Part shown: positions 29,386-62,189 of the stretch, piece after piece
Numbering within the stretch: position 1 is the first letter of the stretch
Layout of the letters: each line of letters starts with the position of its first letter
DNA from: Escherichia coli
GTDB lineage: Bacteria; Pseudomonadota; Gammaproteobacteria; Enterobacterales; Enterobacteriaceae
Assembly: GCF_029227855.1 (NCBI RefSeq)
Contig: NZ_CP074356.1
Strand: one strand, 5' to 3'
Length of the DNA: 64,000 nucleotides
The notes under the pieces: generated by a model
Seen by the model: the letters and a program-made list of their open reading frames with translations, nothing else
Databases searched by the model: none
What the model was told of the DNA's origin: nothing
Translations under genes and position numbers: made by a program

Positions 29386-30375
29386 TTAGCCGCCAATGTA
29401 CGATAAGTTTTGCGTAATACCGGTGTTATTTTGATGCAGGAAATGGGTCTGTTTCTTCTCCCGCAGCGCCGCTGAAATACGCGCTTCCAGCGCCTGTTGC
29501 TGGGTATCGTCTTCCAGCAGATCGCGCAGGTTAACGCCGCCTTCACCAAACAGGCAGAGATGGAGTTTACCAATGGAGGAAACGCGCAGGCGGTTGCAAG
29601 TGGCGCAGAAGTCTTTTTCATACGGCATGATAAGGCCAATCTCTCCGGCGTAATCCGGATGACAAAAGACTTGCGCGGGACCGTCGCTGCGTTGACGTAA
29701 TTGGTGGATCCAGCCGCGACGCAGTAGCTCGTCACGCAGAACCTGACCAGAGATGTGATGCTTACGGAAGAGCTCGCTGCCCTCACCCGTTTCCATCAAT
29801 TCGATGAAACGCAGCTGGATAGGGCGATGCTGGATCCAGTTCAGAAAGGTGTCGAGCTGATGATGATTAACATCACGCATCAGCACGGTATTGACTTTGA
29901 CCTTCTCAAAACCGGCCTCAAATGCAGCATCGATCCCTGCCATGACCTGGTTGAATTTATCCTGCCCGGTAATGGCATGAAACTGGCGAGCGTCAAGGCT
30001 ATCAACGCTGACGTTGATGCCAGTAAGTCCCGCATCGCGCCAGTTCGCCACATCGCGTTCCAGACGGTAACCATTGGTGGTGACCGCAATCTGGCGGATA
30101 GCGTCGTTTTCCCGCACAGCGGCGATGATATCGGTAAAGTCGCGGCGTAAAGACGGCTCACCACCTGTCAGACGGACTTTTTCGGTGCCCAGACTGGCAA
30201 AGGCGCGCGTAATCCGGCGAATTTCATCGACGGTAAGAAAGCCTTTATTGGTGACGCCGCTCGGTTTGTAGCCATCCGGCAGGCAGTAGGTGCAACGAAA
30301 GTTACACACATCAGTAATCGACAGGCGCAAGTAGTAAAACTTACGCGCAAATGCATCAGTCAGTTGTGAAGCCAT
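29386..30375 (-). CDS. moaA: GTP 3',8-cyclase (radical SAM)
   Basis: Internal ATG at 30375 gives 329 aa ([31 protein letters not shown]) with the CxxxCxxC radical-SAM motif. Confidence 0.93.
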
Positions 30376-30379
30376 GTAC

Positions 30380-30520
30380 ACCTTTCCAGATACGGGAGGC
30401 GAAGTCATTTCTTTCTTCGCCCTGGTGGCAATCTTTACGAGCATTGTCACGGCCAAAGCACCGTATCAGTTGACCCAGGTGCAGAGGCTAGAGTGTTTAG
30501 TGGTTAAGCCGATACTAGCG
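30380..30520 (-). promoter_or_regulatory. Molybdenum-cofactor (Moco) riboswitch candidate in the moaA leader
   Basis: Long structured 5' UTR upstream of moaA; the E. coli moaABCDE leader is the described Moco RNA motif; transcript ends …GCGAAGAAAGAAAUGACUUCGCCUCCCGUAUCUGG before the start; boundaries approximate. Confidence 0.5.
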
Positions 30521-30550
30521 TGTAAATGAGATTTTTACCATCCACACTTT

Positions 30551-30574
30551 CGCTATGTAATCATGTATATAGCG
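30551..30574. promoter_or_regulatory. ModE operator-like palindrome in the moaA promoter
   Basis: cgctatgtaatcatgtatatagcg (CGCTAT-N12-ATAGCG), similar to ModE sites. Confidence 0.45.
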
Positions 30575-30711
30575 TCATGATCGTGCTATTTCGCTACAGA
30601 ATAAGGGAAAATGGCGGTTTTACTTTGATATACATCATCAGGAAGGCATAGCGTACATCGTCCTTTAGAGGTAGAAGAAAATAGTTTGTATCCTCAATAT
30701 TGGCAGGTTAA

Positions 30712-31680
<969 letters not shown>

Positions 31681-31717: not shown

Positions 31718-33739
31718 TCACGACGCGGCAATAAACAACTCACGCAACTGATGCAACTGGTCACGAATTTGCGCCGCTTCTTCGAACTCCAGATTCTGCG
31801 CGTGTTGCATCATCAACCCTTCCAGTTCATGGATCTTCTGCTGTAACGCTTTAGGCGACATATCCATCGGCACATTATCCGGCTCAACAATTGGGCGCGA
31901 TTTTCCTCTGCCCTTCGCTTTGGTTTTGGCAATGTTCTGCCCCAGCGCCAGGATATCGACCACTTTCTTGTTCAAGCCCTGCGGCGTAATACCGTGTTCC
32001 TCGTTGTACTTCTGCTGTTTCTCGCGGCGACGTTCGGTTTCGCCAATCGCTTTCGCCATTGACGGGGTGATCTTATCGCCGTAGAGAATCGCTTTACCGT
32101 TAACGTTACGCGCCGCACGACCAATAGTCTGGATCAACGAACGTTCAGAACGCAGGAAGCCTTCTTTGTCGGCGTCGAGGATCGCCACCAGCGACACTTC
32201 TGGCATATCCAGACCTTCGCGCAGTAAGTTGATCCCCACCAGCACGTCGAACTCGCCCAGACGCAAGTCGCGGATAATCTCCATACGCTCGACGGTGTCG
32301 ATATCGGAGTGAAGATAACGCACGCGCTCGCCGTGTTCTTCGAGATATTCCGTGAGATCTTCCGCCATTCGCTTGGTCAGAGTTGTAACCAGTACGCGTT
32401 CGTTAATTGCCGCTCGCTGACGAATCTCCGAAAGAAGATCATCAACCTGTGTCGCCACTGGCCGCACTTCGATAATCGGATCAAGCAATCCGGTTGGACG
32501 CACCACCTGATCCACCACATCGCCGCCCGATTTTTCCAGCTCGTAATTACCCGGCGTCGCCGAAACATAGATGGTTTGCGGCGCTAATGCTTCGAACTCT
32601 TCAAACTTCAGCGGACGGTTATCCAGCGCTGATGGCAGGCGGAAGCCGTACTCCACCAGCGTCTCTTTACGCGCCCGGTCACCGCGATACATGCCGCCAA
32701 TTTGCGGAATGGTGACGTGTGATTCATCGACCACCAGCAGCCCATCGGCAGGCAGGTAATCAAACAGCGTCGGCGGTGGCTCACCCGGTCCACGACCGGA
32801 GAGGAAGCGCGAGTAGTTCTCAATCCCGGAACAGTAGCCCAGCTCGTTCATCATCTCCAGATCAAACTGGGTACGCTGGGTCAGCCGCTGCTCTTCAAGC
32901 AACTTGTTGTTCTCCAACAGCACTTTGCGTCTGGCGGCCAGTTCTTCTTTGATCTCTTCCATCGCCTGTACGATGCGCTCGCGCGGCGTGACGTAGTGCG
33001 TTTTCGGGTAGATGGTAAAACGTGGAATAGTGGAAACAATCTGCCCGGTGAGCGGGTCAAATAACGACAATCGTTCCACTTCCTCGTCAAACAGCTCCAC
33101 GCGAAGTGCAATGTCATCCGATTCTGCTGGGAAGATATCAATCACCTCACCACGAACGCGGAAAGTACCACGCTGGAATGCCTGATCATTACGAGCGTAT
33201 TGCAGCTCCGCCAGTCGGCGCAGAATCGCGCGCTGATCGATAATCATACCGACCGTGAGATGGAGCATCATCTTGAGATATAAATCAGGATCGCCCAGAC
33301 CATAAATCGCGGAAACAGAGGCCACTACAACCACATCACGCCGCTCCAGCATCGCTTTGGTGGCGGATAAACGCATCTGCTCAATATGTTCGTTAACCGA
33401 GGCATCTTTCTCAATGAAGGTGTCGGAACTCGGTACATAGGCTTCCGGCTGATAGTAGTCGTAGTAGGAGACGAAATATTCCACCGCGTTTTCCGGGAAG
33501 AACTCTTTCATTTCGCCATACAACTGGGCCGCCAGCGTTTTGTTGGGCGCAAGTACCATGGTAGGGCGCTGAAGATCAGCAATGACATTGGCAATGGTGA
33601 AGGTTTTCCCGGAGCCAGTCACGCCAAGTAACGTCTGATGCGCCAGGCCATCTTCCAGCCCCTCTTCGAGACGTCGAATCGCCTCTGGCTGATCGCCAGA
33701 AGGTTTAAAAGCGGAATTCAGTTTGAACGGTTTACTCAT
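31718..33739 (-). CDS. uvrB: Excinuclease ABC subunit B
   Basis: 673-aa ORF with Walker A GVTGSGKT and helicase motifs; matches UvrB. Confidence 0.97.
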
Positions 33740-49488: not shown

Positions 49489-50547
49489 TCAGGCGGTTAT
49501 CGACACACTTTTAATTTGCGCGTACAGCCACAGGCCTGGTTTGATCGCCAGTTCATCCCTGGCCCACGGGCTGATACGCGCCCACAGCGTTTTACCGCCG
49601 ACTTCCAGCTCCACTTCCACCTGGCCGTTGTCGTCATAACTATTAACAACTTTTGCCCGCAATACGTTACGAATGCTGGTTTGCTGCGGCGGTTGTAAAA
49701 CCAGCGAGACATCGGAAGCCTGAATGCGGATGCGTAGTGCAGCTTGCAGCGGTTCGTCCAGCTTATTGACCCACAAATGCTGATCGCCCAGCGCCAGCGC
49801 GGTCATCGCGTAATGCGGATGATGCTCAAGCACCGTCACTTTCAGAATGCTACTTTGTTGCTCTTTCGGCAGCCACGGATTCATCACGCTACTGCCCCAC
49901 ACTTCCTCCAGCGCGCCAAAGGCTTTCACCTGACCGTTTTCCAGTACCATCACTCTGTCTGCCAGATGGAGGATCTCATCCAGCGAATGGCTGACATACA
50001 ACATCGGAATGTTGATTTCCCGTGTCAGCCGTTGCAGATAAGGCAACAGTTCGCGTTTACGCGGAATATCCAGTGACGCCAGCGGTTCATCCAGCAACAG
50101 CAATTCCGGTGCTGTCAGCAAAGCCCGACCAATCGCCACGCGCTGTTTTTCGCCTCCGGACAGGCTGCCTGGTAAACGGTCAAGCAACGGTTCAATGCCT
50201 AAAAGCGCCACCAGCTTATCGAACTGATCGACCATACTTTTCGACATGCCGTAGCGCAGATTGCCACGCACTTTGTAATGCGGGAACAGCCGCGCATCCT
50301 GAAAAACATAGCCAACGCGACGCTTTTCCGGCGTCAGGCAGATACCTTTTTCGGCATCATTTAGTACCCGCCCATTGAGGACAATCCGCCCTTTTTGCGG
50401 ACGCGTCAGTCCACTGATGGCGTTAATCAGCGAAGTTTTTCCGGCACCGGAGACGCCAAAGATAGCAGTGATGCCATTGGCGGGCAGCGTTTCATTAATG
50501 GTCAGGCAATGGTTGCCCAACGTCTGGGAAAAATTCAGTTCCAGCAT
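49489..50547 (-). CDS. modC: Molybdate ABC transporter ATP-binding protein
   Basis: 352 aa with Walker [10 protein letters not shown] and C-terminal TOBE domain; matches ModC. Confidence 0.95.
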
Positions 50548-50549
50548 GA

Positions 50550-51239
50550 TTAGCGCCCCGCCCGTTCACGGCTGATTCTGGCCAGCCATTCTGAAATCAA
50601 CAGGGAGATCATCGCCAGCGCAATAGAAATAATGCACAGTCTCGCCGCGCCACTTTCCCCGCCGGGGGTCTGGATCAGGGTATACATGGCAGAAGGAATG
50701 GTTCGCGTTTCACCAGGAATGTTCGACACAAAGGTGATGGTTGCACCAAACTCACCGAGAGAACGAGCAAAAGCCAGTACCGTACCAACAATAATGCCCG
50801 GTAAGGTCAGCGGTAACGTGATAGTAAAGAAAACGCGCCAGCGCCCGGCACCCAGTGTTCTTGCGGCCTGTTCCAGTTTGACATCAACCCCTTCCAGCGC
50901 CAGACGAATTGCCCGCACCATCAGCGGAAACGACATGACGGCGGCAGCGAGAACCGCGCCGCGCCAGCTAAAGGCGAAGGTAATGCCAAACCAGTCATAC
51001 AGACGTTCACCGATAAATCCGCGCCGTCCCATCGAAACTAATAATAAGTAACCGACGACCACGGGCGGTAACACCAGCGGTAGATGCAGTACGCTGTCGA
51101 GCAGAGCTTTGCCCGGAAACGTGCAACGCACCAGTAACCAGGCAAAAAAGATCCCAAACGGCAGGCTAAACAGCACAGCCAGGGAAGAAACTTTCAGGCT
51201 TAATAAAACTGCCTGCCATTCTGGATCGGTCAGTATCAT
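50550..51239 (-). CDS. modB: Molybdate ABC transporter permease
   Basis: 229-aa ORF matching ModB. Confidence 0.95.
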
Positions 51240-52012
51240 TACTTGGTTGTAAATCCGTAACGTTTAAAGATTTCCGCAGCCTGCGGCCCTTTCAAATAAT
51301 CATAAAATGCTTTCACCGTCGCATTGTTATGCCCTTCCACAACAGCAACCGGATATTCCACTTTTTTATGCGAATCTTCCGGGAAGGTGGCAACCACTTT
51401 TACCCCTTTGCTGGCAACTGCGTCAGAACCGTAAACAATACCCAGCGGCGCTTCATTGCGTTCGACCAACGCCAGCGCGCCACGAACATCTTCCGCCGGA
51501 GCCAGTTTCGGGGAGAGCGTATCCCATGCGCCCAGTTTTTGCAGTGCTTCTTTTGCATAAATGCCAGCGGGAACATGTTCCGGATCGCCAACCGCCAGAC
51601 GACCGCCATTCAGCAGCGAAGTCCAGTTGGTTTTGCTGTCGATGGTGAAATCTTTCTGCTCGCTGGCTTTCGGTGCTACAACGACCAGGCTATTGCCGAG
51701 CAGTGTCTGACGCGTAGCTGTATCGATCGCTTTTTTATCAACCGCATAATCCATCCATTTCTGATCGGCAGAAATAAACAGATCCGCAGGGGCTCCCGCT
51801 TCAATCTGACGGGCGAGAGTAGATGACGAAGCGAAAGAAGAAACCACATCCACGCCTTTCTCTTTTTTATACTGCGTAGCAATGTCCTGCATTGCGTTAG
51901 TCAGTGATGCGGCGGCGAACACCGTGATTTTCCCTTCATCTGCCAGTGCATTGCCAGCAACAGCGAAAGAGAGTGCCGCCCCGGCAAACAAGTTCAACCA
52001 TTTACGAGCCAT
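51239..52012 (-). CDS. modA: Molybdate ABC transporter periplasmic binding protein
   Basis: 257 aa with signal peptide; matches ModA. Confidence 0.95.
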   Translation of the reverse strand: MARKWLNLFAGAALSFAVAGNALADEGKITVFAAASLTNAMQDIATQYKKEKGVDVVSSFASSSTLARQIEAGAPADLFISADQKWMDYAVDKKAIDTATRQTLLGNSLVVVAPKASEQKDFTIDSKTNWTSLLNGGRLAVGDPEHVPAGIYAKEALQKLGAWDTLSPKLAPAEDVRGALALVERNEAPLGIVYGSDAVASKGVKVVATFPEDSHKKVEYPVAVVEGHNNATVKAFYDYLKGPQAAEIFKRYGFTTK

Positions 52013-52030
52013 TGGTAACCCCTTAATCTA

Positions 52031-52054
52031 ACGTTATGTAGGCGTCAATATAAC
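52031..52054. promoter_or_regulatory. ModE operator in the modA promoter
   Basis: cgttatgtaggcgtcaatataacg is a CGTTAT-N12-ATAACG palindrome just upstream of the modA start. Confidence 0.65.
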
Positions 52055-52140
52055 GGCAAGTTCGGAATTTTCCCAGCAGTTATTGCTAACCTTTGTGAGG
52101 TAGATGAGAAAAAATATCGGCAGGAAAAGCAGGAAGTTGA

Positions 52141-52169
52141 GAAAAAGAAAATGCCCGACTAAGCGGGCA
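52141..52169 (-). terminator. Intrinsic terminator downstream of acrZ
   Basis: atgcccg-actaag-cgggcat hairpin followed on the minus strand by TTTTCTTTTT. Confidence 0.5.
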
Positions 52170-52177
52170 TTCAGGGA

Positions 52178-52346
<169 letters not shown>

Positions 52347-52456
52347 TCATGAGACTATTCTAACCGCTAAGCACAGAAAAGCACTCCCCTTTTGTGCGGT
52401 CAGCTTTGCGTGGCGTTCGTTTTCCGTCACAATAAGACTTTTGCCAGGATATTGTT

Positions 52457-53245
52457 ATGCAGGCCGAAATCCTTCTCACCCTTAAGCTCCAACAAAAATT
52501 ATTCGCCGACCCGCGCCGCATTTCGCTACTAAAACACATTGCGCTTTCCGGTTCCATTAGCCAGGGAGCGAAAGATGCCGGTATCAGCTATAAAAGCGCC
52601 TGGGATGCCATTAACGAAATGAATCAGTTAAGTGAGCATATTCTGGTCGAGCGCGCAACAGGCGGTAAAGGTGGCGGCGGCGCAGTACTGACCCGCTATG
52701 GTCAGCGACTGATTCAGCTCTATGACTTACTGGCGCAAATCCAGCAAAAAGCCTTTGATGTGTTAAGTGACGATGACGCCCTGCCACTGAACAGCCTGCT
52801 GGCCGCGATCTCACGTTTTTCACTGCAAACCAGCGCCCGTAACCAGTGGTTCGGTACCATCACCGCCCGCGATCATGATGACGTTCAACAGCATGTTGAT
52901 GTCTTACTGGCTGATGGAAAAACACGCCTGAAAGTCGCAATTACCGCACAAAGCGGCGCGCGTCTGGGGCTGGATGAAGGCAAAGAAGTGTTGATATTGC
53001 TAAAAGCGCCGTGGGTAGGCATTACTCAGGACGAAGCTGTCGCACAAAACGCCGACAACCAATTACCGGGTATTATTAGTCATATTGAGCGCGGCGCAGA
53101 GCAGTGCGAAGTATTAATGGCGCTACCCGACGGGCAAACACTGTGCGCCACAGTGCCGGTAAATGAAGCGACTTCTCTTCAGCAAGGACAGAATGTCACG
53201 GCCTACTTTAATGCCGACAGCGTGATTATCGCCACGCTGTGCTAA
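52457..53245 (+). CDS. modE: Molybdate-responsive transcriptional regulator
   Basis: 262 aa with N-terminal HTH and tandem Mop/TOBE domains; matches ModE. Confidence 0.95.
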   Translation: MQAEILLTLKLQQKLFADPRRISLLKHIALSGSISQGAKDAGISYKSAWDAINEMNQLSEHILVERATGGKGGGGAVLTRYGQRLIQLYDLLAQIQQKAFDVLSDDDALPLNSLLAAISRFSLQTSARNQWFGTITARDHDDVQQHVDVLLADGKTRLKVAITAQSGARLGLDEGKEVLILLKAPWVGITQDEAVAQNADNQLPGIISHIERGAEQCEVLMALPDGQTLCATVPVNEATSLQQGQNVTAYFNADSVIIATLC

Positions 53246-53312
53246 GCGTGTTGACAATTTGTTATGAAACACGTATCCCTGTCAGTAATCTCTGCAAAAA
53301 ATGGGATATAAA

Positions 53313-54785
53313 ATGTCATCGTTGCAAATTTTGCAAGGCACGTTTCGTCTTAGCGACACAAAAACACTGCAATTGCCTCAGCTAACGTTAAACGCGGGTG
53401 ATAGTTGGGCGTTTGTCGGTTCGAATGGAAGCGGCAAGTCAGCGCTGGCCCGCGCGCTGGCGGGGGAACTTCCGCTTTTGAAAGGTGAACGGCAAAGCCA
53501 GTTTTCCCACATCACTCGTCTCTCCTTCGAGCAATTGCAAAAGCTCGTCAGCGACGAATGGCAGCGGAATAACACCGATATGCTCGGCCCTGGCGAAGAT
53601 GACACCGGGCGTACCACGGCTGAAATCATTCAGGATGAAGTAAAGGATACTCCGCGTTGCATGCAACTGGCGCAGCAGTTCGGTATTACCGCCCTCCTCG
53701 ACCGACGCTTTAAATACCTTTCCACTGGCGAGACGCGAAAAACCCTGCTGTGTCAGGCGCTGATGTCGGAGCCTGACTTGTTGATCCTTGATGAACCGTT
53801 CGATGGCCTGGATGTTGCCTCACGTCAGCAGCTGGCTGAGCTACTCGCCTCGTTACATCAGTCCGGTATTACTCTGGTACTGGTGCTCAATCGCTTCGAT
53901 GAGATCCCAGAATTTGTCCAGTTTGCTGGCGTGCTGGCGGATTGTACGTTAGCGGAAACTGGCGCTAAAGAGGAACTGCTCCAGCAAGCACTCGTCGCGC
54001 AACTGGCGCATAGCGAACAGCTTGAAGGTGTACAATTGCCGGAGCCGGATGAACCTTCAGCACGTCACGCCTTACCCGCCAACGAACCGCGCATTGTGCT
54101 GAGCAATGGCGTGGTTTCTTATAACGATCGCCCCATTCTTAATAACCTTAGCTGGCAGGTGAATCCAGGCGAGCACTGGCAAATTGTCGGGCCAAATGGC
54201 GCGGGAAAATCGACGTTATTAAGCCTGATTACTGGCGATCATCCGCAAGGTTACAGCAACGATTTGACGCTTTTCGGCCGACGTCGCGGCAGCGGCGAAA
54301 CCATCTGGGACATCAAAAAGCATATCGGTTACGTCAGCAGTAGTTTGCATCTGGATTACCGGGTCAGCACTACTGTGCGTAATGTGATTCTTTCTGGCTA
54401 TTTTGATTCGATTGGCATTTATCAGGCCGTTTCGGATCGCCAGCAAAAACTGGTGCAGCAGTGGCTGGATATTCTCGGCATTGATAAACGCACGGCTGAC
54501 GCTCCTTTCCATAGTCTTTCCTGGGGACAGCAGCGTCTGGCGCTGATCGTCCGTGCACTGGTGAAACATCCGACGTTGCTTATTCTCGATGAACCACTAC
54601 AGGGGCTTGATCCGCTCAATCGCCAGCTTATCCGCCGTTTTGTTGATGTGCTGATTAGCGAAGGTGAAACGCAATTGTTGTTTGTTTCGCACCACGCTGA
54701 AGATGCGCCTTCCTGTATTACCCATCGTCTTGAGTTCGTGCCGGACGGTGACTTTTATCGCTATGCGCTGACAAAAATAAACTGA
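53313..54785 (+). CDS. modF: ABC-type ATPase ModF (two ATP-binding domains)
   Basis: Internal ATG at 53313 gives 490 aa (MSSLQILQGTFRLSD…) with two Walker A motifs (GSNGSGKS, GPNGAGKS). Confidence 0.92.
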   Translation: MSSLQILQGTFRLSDTKTLQLPQLTLNAGDSWAFVGSNGSGKSALARALAGELPLLKGERQSQFSHITRLSFEQLQKLVSDEWQRNNTDMLGPGEDDTGRTTAEIIQDEVKDTPRCMQLAQQFGITALLDRRFKYLSTGETRKTLLCQALMSEPDLLILDEPFDGLDVASRQQLAELLASLHQSGITLVLVLNRFDEIPEFVQFAGVLADCTLAETGAKEELLQQALVAQLAHSEQLEGVQLPEPDEPSARHALPANEPRIVLSNGVVSYNDRPILNNLSWQVNPGEHWQIVGPNGAGKSTLLSLITGDHPQGYSNDLTLFGRRRGSGETIWDIKKHIGYVSSSLHLDYRVSTTVRNVILSGYFDSIGIYQAVSDRQQKLVQQWLDILGIDKRTADAPFHSLSWGQQRLALIVRALVKHPTLLILDEPLQGLDPLNRQLIRRFVDVLISEGETQLLFVSHHAEDAPSCITHRLEFVPDGDFYRYALTKIN

Positions 54786-59482: not shown

Positions 59483-59506
59483 AAAGATGATTTGAGGAGT
59501 AAGTAT

Positions 59507-60259
59507 ATGGCTGTAACTAAGCTGGTTCTGGTTCGTCATGGCGAAAGTCAGTGGAACAAAGAAAACCGTTTCACCGGTTGGTACGACGTGGATCTGTCTG
59601 AGAAAGGCGTAAGCGAAGCAAAAGCAGCAGGTAAGCTGCTGAAAGAGGAAGGTTACAGCTTTGACTTTGCTTACACCTCTGTGCTGAAACGCGCTATTCA
59701 TACCCTGTGGAATGTGCTGGACGAACTGGATCAGGCATGGCTGCCCGTTGAGAAATCCTGGAAACTGAACGAACGTCACTACGGTGCGTTGCAGGGTCTG
59801 AACAAAGCGGAAACCGCTGAAAAGTATGGCGACGAGCAGGTGAAACAATGGCGTCGTGGTTTTGCGGTGACTCCGCCGGAACTGACTAAAGATGATGAGC
59901 GTTATCCGGGTCACGATCCCCGTTACGCGAAACTGAGCGAGAAAGAACTGCCGCTAACGGAAAGCCTGGCGCTGACCATTGACCGCGTGATCCCTTACTG
60001 GAATGAAACTATTCTACCGCGTATGAAGAGCGGTGAGCGCGTCATCATCGCTGCACACGGTAACTCGTTACGTGCGCTGGTGAAATATCTTGATAACATG
60101 AGCGAAGAAGAGATTCTTGAGCTGAATATCCCGACTGGCGTGCCGCTGGTTTATGAGTTTGACGAGAACTTCAAACCGCTGAAACGCTATTATCTGGGTA
60201 ATGCTGACGAGATCGCGGCGAAAGCAGCGGCCGTTGCAAACCAGGGTAAAGCGAAGTAA
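59507..60259 (+). CDS. gpmA: 2,3-bisphosphoglycerate-dependent phosphoglycerate mutase
   Basis: Internal ATG at 59507 gives 250 aa ([17 protein letters not shown] with the RHG catalytic motif). Confidence 0.97.
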
Positions 60260-60311: not shown

Positions 60312-61026
60312 AATGCGCCTATAAGGCTCTCTTACCAGCCGCGCCCTAACAGGCGCACACGATCTGACATTTGCATCCAACTTCGTTACTTACGGCCCGT
60401 AAACGGGCTGCCCGGATAGGGAATCGATAACTGCTCTCCCATTTTATCCTCTTCAAGCTGGTGCTTTATGTAATCCTGTATCTTCGCCGTGTTCTTACCC
60501 ACTGTATCGACGTAGTACCCTCTGCACCAGAACTCCCTGTTCCTGTATTTGAATTTCAAATCACCAAACTGCTCGTAAAGCATCAGACTGCTTTTCCCTT
60601 TCAGATATCCCATAAACCCGGATACGCTCATTTTGGGCGGGATCTCCACAAGCATATGGATATGATCTGCACAGCATTCAGCTTCCAGAATCCGTACGCT
60701 TTTCCACTCACACAGCTTTCTCAAAATACTGCCTATTGCTCTACGCTTCTCTCTGTAGAACACCTGTCTTCGGTATTTTGGCGCAAAAACTATGTGATAT
60801 TTACAGTTCCATCGGGTGTGCGCTAAGCTCTTTTCGTTCCCCATTGGGACCCCCTTTTGATTTCTTGTTTGACACTTGCAGTTGCCAGACCGCAAAGTGT
60901 TTTAACAAATCAAAAGGGGTTTTAATAACTGGCTCAAAGCTGAAAGCTTTCCGGAACCCCCAGCCTAGCTGGGGGTTTTCTGTGCACAATGAGAAAGCCG
61001 ACTGCAAGTGAGTCGGCTTTTTTGTT
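60311..61026 (-). mobile_element. IS200-type insertion sequence (IS200/IS605 family), about 0.7 kb, termini approximate
   Basis: Contains a 152-aa Y1 HuH transposase and, upstream of it, the two IS200 hallmarks: an RBS-sequestering stem-loop (60852-60920) and a terminator-like hairpin (60955-60977); the gpmA-aroG spacer is about 0.7 kb longer than two native terminators/REPs would need. Confidence 0.7.
60386..60844 (-). CDS. tnpA: IS200 transposase TnpA (Y1 HuH transposase)
   Basis: Internal ATG at 60844 gives 152 aa MGNEKSLAHTRWNCKYHIVFAPKYRRQVFY… with the HxH motif (ADHIHMLVEIPP) and a catalytic Tyr region; near-identical to the IS200 TnpA as remembered. Confidence 0.92.
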   Translation of the reverse strand: MGNEKSLAHTRWNCKYHIVFAPKYRRQVFYREKRRAIGSILRKLCEWKSVRILEAECCADHIHMLVEIPPKMSVSGFMGYLKGKSSLMLYEQFGDLKFKYRNREFWCRGYYVDTVGKNTAKIQDYIKHQLEEDKMGEQLSIPYPGSPFTGRK

Positions 61027-61136: not shown

Positions 61137-62189
61137 TTACCCGCGACGCGCTTTTACTGCATTCGCCAGTTGACGTAACAGAGCATCGGTATCTTCCCAG
61201 CCGATGCAGGCATCAGTGATGCTCTTGCCATAGGCCAGCGGTTCCCCACTCTCGAGGCTCTGATTGCCTTCCACCAGATGGCTTTCCACCATCACGCCAA
61301 TAATGGCCTTTTCGCCACCGGCAATCTGCTGGCAAACGTCAGCACAAACATCCATCTGCTTTTTAAATTGTTTTGACGAGTTAGCATGGCTGAAATCGAT
61401 CATCACCTGTGCTGGCAGGCCTGCTTTGTTCAGCCCTTCTTTCACTTCAGCAACGTGCTTCGCGCTGTAGTTAGGCTCTTTACCGCCGCGCAGAATGATA
61501 TGGCAATCGCCGTTACCGCTGGTATTCACAATCGCCGAATGCCCCCATTTCGTTACGGACAGGAAGCAGTGCGGCGCACCGGCGGCATTAATGGCATCGA
61601 TAGCCACTTTAATCGTACCATCAGTGCCATTTTTGAAGCCTACCGGGCAAGAAAGCCCTGATGCCAGTTCGCGGTGCACCTGCGATTCCGTAGTACGTGC
61701 GCCAATTGCGCCCCAGCTCATCAGGTCAGCGAGATACTGCGGGGTGATCATATCGAGAAATTCACCCGCTGCTGGCAAACCGCTGTCGTTAATATCAAGC
61801 AGCAATTTACGGGCAATACGCAGACCGTCGTTGATCTGGAAGCTGTTATCCATATGCGGATCATTAATCAGCCCTTTCCAGCCCACAGTGGTACGCGGCT
61901 TTTCAAAATAGACGCGCATCACGATTTCCAGCTCATCTTGCAGCTCTTCACGCAGCGTCAGCAAGCGAGTGGCATACTCTTTAGCCGCGACAGGATCATG
62001 AATTGAGCACGGACCAATCACCACCAACAGGCGATCATCATTACCTTTCAGGATCTTATGGATCTCTTTTCGGGCATGGGCGACCGTATTCGCGGCATTT
62101 TCAGTAGCGGGGAATTTTTCCAGCAATGCGACAGGAGGAAGTAACTCTTTGATTTCTTTGATGCGTAAATCGTCGTTCTGATAATTCAT
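61137..62189 (-). CDS. aroG: Phe-sensitive 3-deoxy-7-phosphoheptulonate (DAHP) synthase
   Basis: 350-aa ORF starting MNYQNDDLRIKEIKELLPP; matches AroG. Confidence 0.97.
   Translation of the reverse strand: MNYQNDDLRIKEIKELLPPVALLEKFPATENAANTVAHARKEIHKILKGNDDRLLVVIGPCSIHDPVAAKEYATRLLTLREELQDELEIVMRVYFEKPRTTVGWKGLINDPHMDNSFQINDGLRIARKLLLDINDSGLPAAGEFLDMITPQYLADLMSWGAIGARTTESQVHRELASGLSCPVGFKNGTDGTIKVAIDAINAAGAPHCFLSVTKWGHSAIVNTSGNGDCHIILRGGKEPNYSAKHVAEVKEGLNKAGLPAQVMIDFSHANSSKQFKKQMDVCADVCQQIAGGEKAIIGVMVESHLVEGNQSLESGEPLAYGKSITDACIGWEDTDALLRQLANAVKARRG

Follow-up and report, generated by a model that had tools for sequence, protein, structure and literature searches.

The window analyzed here (the whole stretch of 64,000 nucleotides) is a segment of the E. 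coli chromosome, oriented opposite to K-12 numbering. Within it, moaA, the first gene of moaABCDE, is divergent from ybhK/yvcK, and the intergenic gap between the two start codons measures 396 bp (ATGs at 30375-30373 on the minus strand and at 30772 on the plus strand), in agreement with the roughly 400 bp given in a first-pass annotation. Past moaA, the gene order continues with moaB, moaC, moaD, moaE, and ybhL. The identities of MoaA, YvcK/YbhK, and ModE, the last encoded elsewhere in the window, were confirmed with NCBIfam equivalog models. The features of the locus are the following:

29386-30375, minus strand: moaA coding sequence, 329 aa, first gene of moaABCDE (ATG 30375-30373; NCBIfam TIGR02666, 369.8 bits against a cutoff of 284; RefSeq annotation)
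30363-30507, minus strand: Moco riboswitch aptamer with built-in expression platform, P1-P5 (RF01055; PGAP; 143/145 nt identical to K-12)
30367, minus strand: position equivalent to the abundant K-12 RNA 3' end 817052 (Term-seq, PMC7815308 supplement; K-12 alignment)
30378-30384, minus strand: Shine-Dalgarno (SD) region AAGGUGU, in which GGUGU (30382-30378) forms the P1 3' strand (covariance-model alignment; anchor check; PMC2408646)
30394-30399, minus strand: conserved CCUCCC core element (invariant in 23/23 aligned aptamers)
30408-30411, minus strand: GAAA tetraloop capping P4 (covariance-model alignment)
30491-30496, minus strand: P1 core 5' strand ACAC(U)C, partner of the SD (covariance-model alignment; anchor-based pairing check in 25 gammaproteobacterial aptamers)
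30505-30517, minus strand: core of the S1 (ModE-activated) promoter, with a candidate -10-like TAGTAT at 30517-30512 and a start at ~30505-30506
30551-30574, either strand: ModE operator, CGCTATATA-CATGAT-TACATAGCG on the moaA strand (exact palindrome; 15/16 to consensus; conservation; PMC2408646)
30593-30603, minus strand: core of the S2 (FNR-dependent) promoter, with a candidate -10-like TATTCT at 30603-30598 and a predicted start at ~30593, from -87 relative to S1
30625-30638, either strand: FNR-type site TTGATATACATCAT (9/10 to TTGAT-N4-ATCAA; ~40 bp upstream of S2; 69 bp from the ModE centre)
30772-31680, plus strand: ybhK/yvcK (ATG at 30772)
31718-33739, minus strand: uvrB, flanking ybhK/yvcK

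The 501 nt around the feature are 100% identical to several RefSeq genomes, such as NZ_CP076709 (O158:H23), and the moaA leader region was found in 5,424 of 5,426 complete E. coli genomes. Relative to K-12 MG1655, there are four SNPs across 451 nt, two of them inside the 145-nt riboswitch match (143/145 identical). Two of 5,437 leader-region matches sit on plasmid-typed records, a few E. coli genomes hold two copies, and the match in NZ_CP183138 is truncated upstream of query position 123. Two further observations concern the surroundings. A perfect 15-bp palindrome, GCGCTAC-T-GTAGCGC, lies at 30732-30746, 26 bp upstream of the ybhK/yvcK start codon; in two Citrobacter loci its arms are altered yet largely complementary (CGTTAC.A.GTAGCG and CGTTA.CAA.TAACG). 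This pattern suggests a putative conserved operator or RNA element for ybhK. Farther away, an ORF for an IS200/IS605-family transposase (NF033573, 147.7 bits) within 60386-60977 (minus strand) is preceded by a full-length match to the Rfam STnc490 Hfq-binding RNA (60854-60977, 144.6 bits). The element is inserted between gpmA (59492-60259) and aroG (61137-62189) and looks like a strain-specific insertion, given that K-12 is not known to carry IS200.

A covariance-model search of the moaA leader returned a match to Rfam RF01055 (Molybdenum/Tungsten riboswitch aptamer) at 30363-30507 on the minus strand, with 102.9 bits against a gathering score of 36 bits and an E-value of 1.7e-24, covering the model in full (positions 1-135 of 135). 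In RefSeq genomes (NZ_CP076709), PGAP labels precisely these nucleotides as "molybdenum cofactor riboswitch". The candidate Moco riboswitch of the first-pass annotation was thus strongly supported by both. The RNA lies directly upstream of moaA and overlaps its start, taking in the SD, the AUG, and the first 13 nt of the gene, with moaBCDE downstream. Of the leader boundaries proposed earlier, the upper one coincides exactly with the end of the ModE palindrome, but the lower one falls short, as the aptamer reaches 17 nt further in the 3' direction.

With GGUGU as the 3' strand of P1 and the AUG 3 nt downstream of it, the ribosome binding site is within P1, which forms the expression platform. 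In the published model, too, the ribosome binding site is located within P1-forming nucleotides, and ligand binding is expected to repress (PMC2408646). P5 consists of only two base pairs, formed by the CC at 30396-30395 with the GG at 30387-30386 of UGGAAAGG (covariance-model fold and RNAalifold), and both CCUCCC and UGGAAAGG are invariant in 23/23 aptamers. It had been proposed that the 3' end of the leader pairs the start region with the CCUCCC stretch; this stretch is present at 30399-30394 and its CC does pair with GG, but the SD itself pairs with the P1 5' strand ACAC(U)C.

We examined the fold further in an alignment of 23 gammaproteobacterial aptamers built with MAFFT, independently of the Rfam alignment. 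RNAalifold recovered P2, P4, and P5, with compensatory changes at 10 pairs, and did not recover P1 and P3 on this alignment, because MAFFT sets the 5' strands of enteric and Vibrio sequences in different registers. P1 was therefore tested by anchors instead; this check placed a P1-SD pairing in 25/25 aptamers, with the start codon 3-8 nt later. Enteric P1 pairs 5'-ACAC(U)C-3' with 5'-GGUGU-3' (5-6 pairs and a 1-nt bulge), Vibrio and Aeromonas pair AACUCC with GGUGUU, and Psychromonas pairs AGCUCC with GGAACU, an A-U to G-C switch. In every lineage checked, the P1 3' strand is the purine-rich SD. For P3, the basis here is the covariance-model alignment alone, together with the published M1/M2 compensatory mutants. 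The P2 bulge, a putative variant of the tetraloop receptor, reads CCUGGG...GAUACGG in E. coli versus a CUAAG...AUA form in Vibrio and Aeromonas. A terminator scan found no intrinsic terminator in the moaA leader, which fits translational plus Rho control. In Citrobacter, Enterobacter, and Lelliottia (loci L043, L093, L050, and L113), an insertion of 17-24 nt separates the S1-start block (CATAACCAC) from the P1 core (UAAACACUC), at A3 columns 300-323, equivalent to between 30500 and 30499; hence, the position of the outer P1 pairs in the Rfam drawing of E. coli (AAC-C with G-UU around the AUG) is not conserved.

Single-sequence folding was set aside as uninformative for a tertiary-structured aptamer. 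It did not yield the consensus fold (minimum free energy -40.1 kcal/mol versus -24.6 for the consensus structure), and its z-score was only -1.73. In the alternative minimum-energy fold, the SD AGGUGU pairs with GCACCU of the P2 5' strand and CCGUAUC pairs with GAUACGG, so that the SD is predicted to be sequestered in this conformer too. The complementarity behind this fold is retained, with wobbles, in Enterobacter and Lelliottia, and not in Vibrio. The riboswitch takes two or more conformations in vitro according to DMS-MaPseq ensembles (PMC13271884), and the alternative fold may relate to these conformers and to the reported need for CsrA in exposing the SD.

Upstream of the leader, CGCTAT-GTAATCATGTAT-ATAGCG occurs exactly at 30551-30574; this is the ModE-type palindrome of the first-pass annotation. 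It is the sole exact CGCTAT-N12-ATAGCG in the 64 kb, and the exact pattern had 0 matches in 100 dinucleotide-preserving shuffles. When up to two mismatches were allowed, the pattern was not enriched in the window (4 found vs 2.9 expected); specificity is therefore argued from the exactness of the match, its score against the consensus, and conservation. The E. coli ModE consensus is ATCGnTATATA-N6-TATATAnCGAT (PMC545781), and the moaA site agrees with it at 15 of 16 core positions, where the best of 100 window shuffles reached 13. Scanning the whole window with this consensus, we found two sites above the shuffle maximum: the moaA site and a 14/16 site at 52032-52055. The second is the modA operator, CGTTATATTGACGCCTACATAACG, which lies just upstream of modA (51239-52012, minus strand) and adjoins modE and modF. 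The gene modE itself (52457-53245, 262 aa; NF007957, 509.8 bits against a cutoff of 369) is ~22 kb from the moaA site, so that the regulator, its classical modA operator, and the moaA operator all fall within the 64-kb window. The locus for molybdate uptake and regulation spans 49489-54785 in this window, with modC, modB, and modA on the minus strand and modE and modF on the plus strand.

The two promoters of E. coli moaA are described in PMC2408646, which relays Anderson et al. 2000. By this account, S1 is activated by molybdate-ModE and has the ModE site upstream of it, S2 is FNR-dependent and lies 87 nt upstream of S1, and the 131 nt that separate S1 from the AUG bring about repression that depends on Moco. 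The known ModE and Moco control invoked by the first-pass annotation is thus the arrangement described for this very operon. Counting back along the 131-nt leader places S1 at ~30505-30506, in agreement with a 5'-UTR clone starting with AACCAC (Adams et al., PMC7815308), and the ModE site lies between S2 and S1, with its centre ~57 bp upstream of S1. The S1 block ATTTACRCGCTAnTATCGGCATAACCAC is conserved in six Enterobacteriaceae, and the S2 block TATTCTGTAGYGAAA is conserved across the enterobacterial alignment. A simple sigma-70 scan found no promoter-like site in the region, and we therefore based the promoter positions on the literature and on conservation. Such a null result is expected for activator-dependent promoters; the hexamers TAGTAT and TATTCT and the exact S2 start are thus candidates. 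The FNR motif has five matches in the window vs 2.3 expected and is, taken alone, weak evidence.

To place the locus in a wider context, we scanned species-representative genomes with the DNA pattern GCCTCCCGTNNNTGGAAAGG, which gave 120 loci in many phyla, spanning Bacillota to Chloroflexi and Actinomycetota. Each of the 26 gammaproteobacterial loci examined has a full-length RF01055 match, scoring 68-105 bits, directly upstream of moaA. Six Enterobacteriaceae (E. coli, E. albertii, two Citrobacter, Enterobacter, and Lelliottia) have the ModE palindrome at 14-15/16 (0/500 shuffles as good), together with an FNR-type site (8-9/10) whose centre is exactly 69 bp from the ModE centre. The distance of these sites to the aptamer varies over 55-79 nt in the same six Enterobacteriaceae despite the fixed 69-bp spacing between them. 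When the six enterobacterial intergenic regions were aligned, discrete conserved blocks emerged, separated by diverged sequence: the FNR site, the ModE site, the -10 and start of each promoter (S2 and S1), and the aptamer. Upstream of the aptamer in Aeromonas, Vibrio, Aliivibrio, Photobacterium, and Psychromonas, by contrast, we found no ModE or FNR site better than shuffles. Since the DNA sites form conserved blocks in Enterobacteriaceae and are absent in the other gammaproteobacteria, the ModE/FNR transcriptional layer is an enterobacterial addition to a much older, widely shared riboswitch. At three Vibrionaceae loci, a gene for the Qrr quorum-sensing sRNA (RF00378, 86-108 bits) lies ~3 kb from the moaA Moco riboswitch (L067 5785-5890, L076 7587-7682, and L101 9302-9400); this proximity is probably merely conserved synteny.

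The two SNPs inside the riboswitch differ in frequency and position. At 30507 (minus strand), the window has T where K-12 and five other Enterobacteriaceae have A; the position is -2 of S1, at the unpaired 5' edge of the aptamer. The T allele is common, being found in 2,143 of 5,423 E. coli genomes (~40%), including O157:H7 and ST131. We considered and rejected the idea that it alters the initiating nucleotide of S1, as the UTR clone (PMC7815308) puts the start at 30505 and the allele reaches ~40%. At 30414 (minus strand), in the apical internal loop of P4, the window has A and K-12 has G. This A allele is rare: exact 60-mer matches in complete E. coli genomes gave 185/5,423 (3.4%), vs 5,203/5,424 with the K-12 allele. 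The A changes GAAGGAAG to GAAGAAAG, which leaves the S1 leader with a single GGA triplet instead of two, and it also replaces a potential tandem G-A/A-G mismatch in apical P4. Harm to the aptamer was considered and judged unlikely: Enterobacter and Lelliottia also have A at the equivalent position, and the aptamer therefore tolerates it. Should the lost GGA be one of the mapped CsrA sites, the lineage might have weakened or lost CsrA activation, or an altered docking of the P4 tetraloop, an outcome that we regard as improbable. If it were so, 30414 A would be a case in which natural variation uncouples the Csr input of a dual-input riboswitch from its cofactor input. This rare P4 variant could be used to probe the interplay between CsrA and the riboswitch.

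Much is known of the near-identical K-12 sequence. Without Moco synthesis, expression from a 149-nt K-12 construct increases more than threefold, the structural model agrees with in-line probing, and mutations that disrupt P3 abolish control, which compensatory mutations restore (PMC2408646). The leader has two binding sites for CsrA, which activates translation of moaA (PMC7652899, PMC3856055), and a rho mutant expresses a moaA fusion at a level more than twofold higher (PMC7815308). The Term-seq 3' end equivalent to 30367 falls two nucleotides past the last P1 pair, and the supplement of PMC7815308 gives a Rho readthrough region at K-12 817336, corresponding to window position ≈30083. By analogy with this literature, from which we take the ModE/FNR dependence, the Moco repression, the CsrA activation, and the Rho effect, a mechanism can be proposed. 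Under anaerobiosis, FNR at 30625-30638 would drive S2, while molybdate-loaded ModE on the palindrome at 30551-30574 would drive S1; both would be weak, activator-dependent promoters whose transcripts carry the ~130-nt Moco riboswitch. When a product of the Moco pathway is abundant, the aptamer would fold and P1 would pair ACAC(U)C with the SD GGUGU. With the AUG inside the closing part of P1, ribosome loading would be blocked, making this a translational OFF switch, and the untranslated moaA mRNA would be exposed to Rho-dependent termination inside the ORF. CsrA, bound to the GGA motifs of the leader, would counteract sequestration and activate translation. The order of events from the translation block to Rho, as well as direct ligand binding, are inferred steps of this scheme.

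The two-layer molybdate/Moco control suggested at the outset therefore counts too few layers, with at least five inputs at the locus: FNR, ModE, the Moco riboswitch, CsrA, and Rho. In this textbook case of layered control, FNR would convey oxygen, ModE molybdate, the riboswitch the end product, and CsrA carbon status, with Rho in addition. We consider it almost certain that the region is the native control region of the E. coli moaABCDE operon, which serves molybdopterin and Moco biosynthesis. The feature is already known and routinely annotated, being the archetype and founding example of the Moco riboswitch class. The case is thus useful mainly as a positive control, in which a reading of the raw sequence correctly placed both the operator and the riboswitch.

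Other readings of the same elements deserve weighing. CCUCC is a classic anti-SD sequence, and one could suppose that CCUCCC acts as such by pairing the moaA start region, so that a local hairpin and not P1 is the expression platform. Such a duplex is energetically plausible: an isolated GCCUCCCG pairs with the start-region UGG..AGGU at -5.8 kcal/mol, vs -5.2 for the P1 core duplex and -7.1 for the extended P1. Nevertheless, both the covariance model and PMC2408646 pair only CC with GG (P5) and place the ribosome binding site in P1. Moreover, the invariance of CCUCCC and UGGAAAGG in 23/23 aptamers offers no covariation for an extended pairing, whereas P1 differs between lineages in a compensatory manner. 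Moco riboswitches that work through terminators likewise retain CCUCCC (PMC2408646), which is therefore an element of the aptamer core. We thus find an anti-SD hairpin very unlikely and retain P1 as the sequestering stem. We put close to nil the probability that the palindrome arose by chance or serves some regulator besides ModE. The lack of enrichment at two mismatches (4 vs 2.9) would suit chance. Yet the exact match appeared in 0/100 shuffles, the sequence is kept in six Enterobacteriaceae while its flanks diverge, and its score of 15/16 to the ModE consensus exceeds a shuffle maximum of 13 that is otherwise surpassed only by the bona fide modA operator. A ModE site upstream of S1 is, moreover, what PMC2408646 relays, and we continue to read the palindrome as a ModE operator.

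A different question is whether the leader senses anything by itself. It might be a structured RNA without direct sensing, with repression exerted by an unnamed Moco-binding protein or by CsrA occupancy alone. Direct ligand binding was never demonstrated, Moco being unstable (PMC2408646), the effector was still to be identified as of 2024 (PMC10845959), and CsrA binds the same leader (PMC7652899). Against this stands a multi-stem fold of ~135 nt that is common to many phyla and includes a GNRA tetraloop as well as a strongly conserved junction. CsrA is not known from many lineages that have the Moco motif, which counts against repression by CsrA alone. The size and conservation of the RNA are typical of riboswitch aptamers rather than of protein sites, and the presence or absence of P3 tracks molybdenum or tungsten metabolism, which suggests direct discrimination (PMC2408646). 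Repression through a protein thus strikes us as highly improbable, and we favor a leader that would sense a product of the Moco pathway directly.

We finally compared the elements of the locus with known systems. Its FNR-type site resembles those of class II FNR promoters (TTGAT-N4-ATCAA near -41.5), with a 9/10 match ~40 bp upstream of S2 and conservation in Enterobacteriaceae, in a geometry that is approximate here (-38.5 to -41.5, within ~3 bp), the S2 coordinate being derived from "-87 relative to S1". The modA operator shares with the moaA site the inverted-repeat layout CGnTAT-N12-ATAnCG. At modA, ModE acts as a repressor. The modA operator is directly upstream of its gene start, whereas the moaA site lies ~57 bp upstream of S1, where ModE activates according to the account relayed in PMC2408646. 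The moaA site also differs from the extended ModE consensus in being without the flanking AT...AT. Among leaders activated by CsrA (moaA and ymdA; PMC7652899), the same moaA leader has been reported with two CsrA sites. As in the CsrA-bound leader of K-12, the GGA at CUGGAAAGG (30387-30385) is kept; unlike in K-12, the second leader GGA (GAAGGAAG, apical P4) reads GAAGAAAG here.

The closest relative is the Moco RNA motif of K-12 moaA (RF01055; PMC2408646), which is the same locus with essentially the same sequence (143/145 nt). The likeness extends to the full set of P1-P5 including P3, a P4 capped by the GAAA tetraloop, an SD embedded in P1, and the position upstream of moaABCDE, and the difference lies in two SNPs, A->T at 30507 and G->A at 30414. 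With the Tuco (tungsten-cofactor) variants, this RNA has in common the core junction and CCUCCC...UGGAAAGG. Tuco variants are, however, without P3, whereas the RNA described here has the P3 stem GUGACAAU...AUUGCCAC, the form that is tied to Moco and not to Tuco (PMC2408646).
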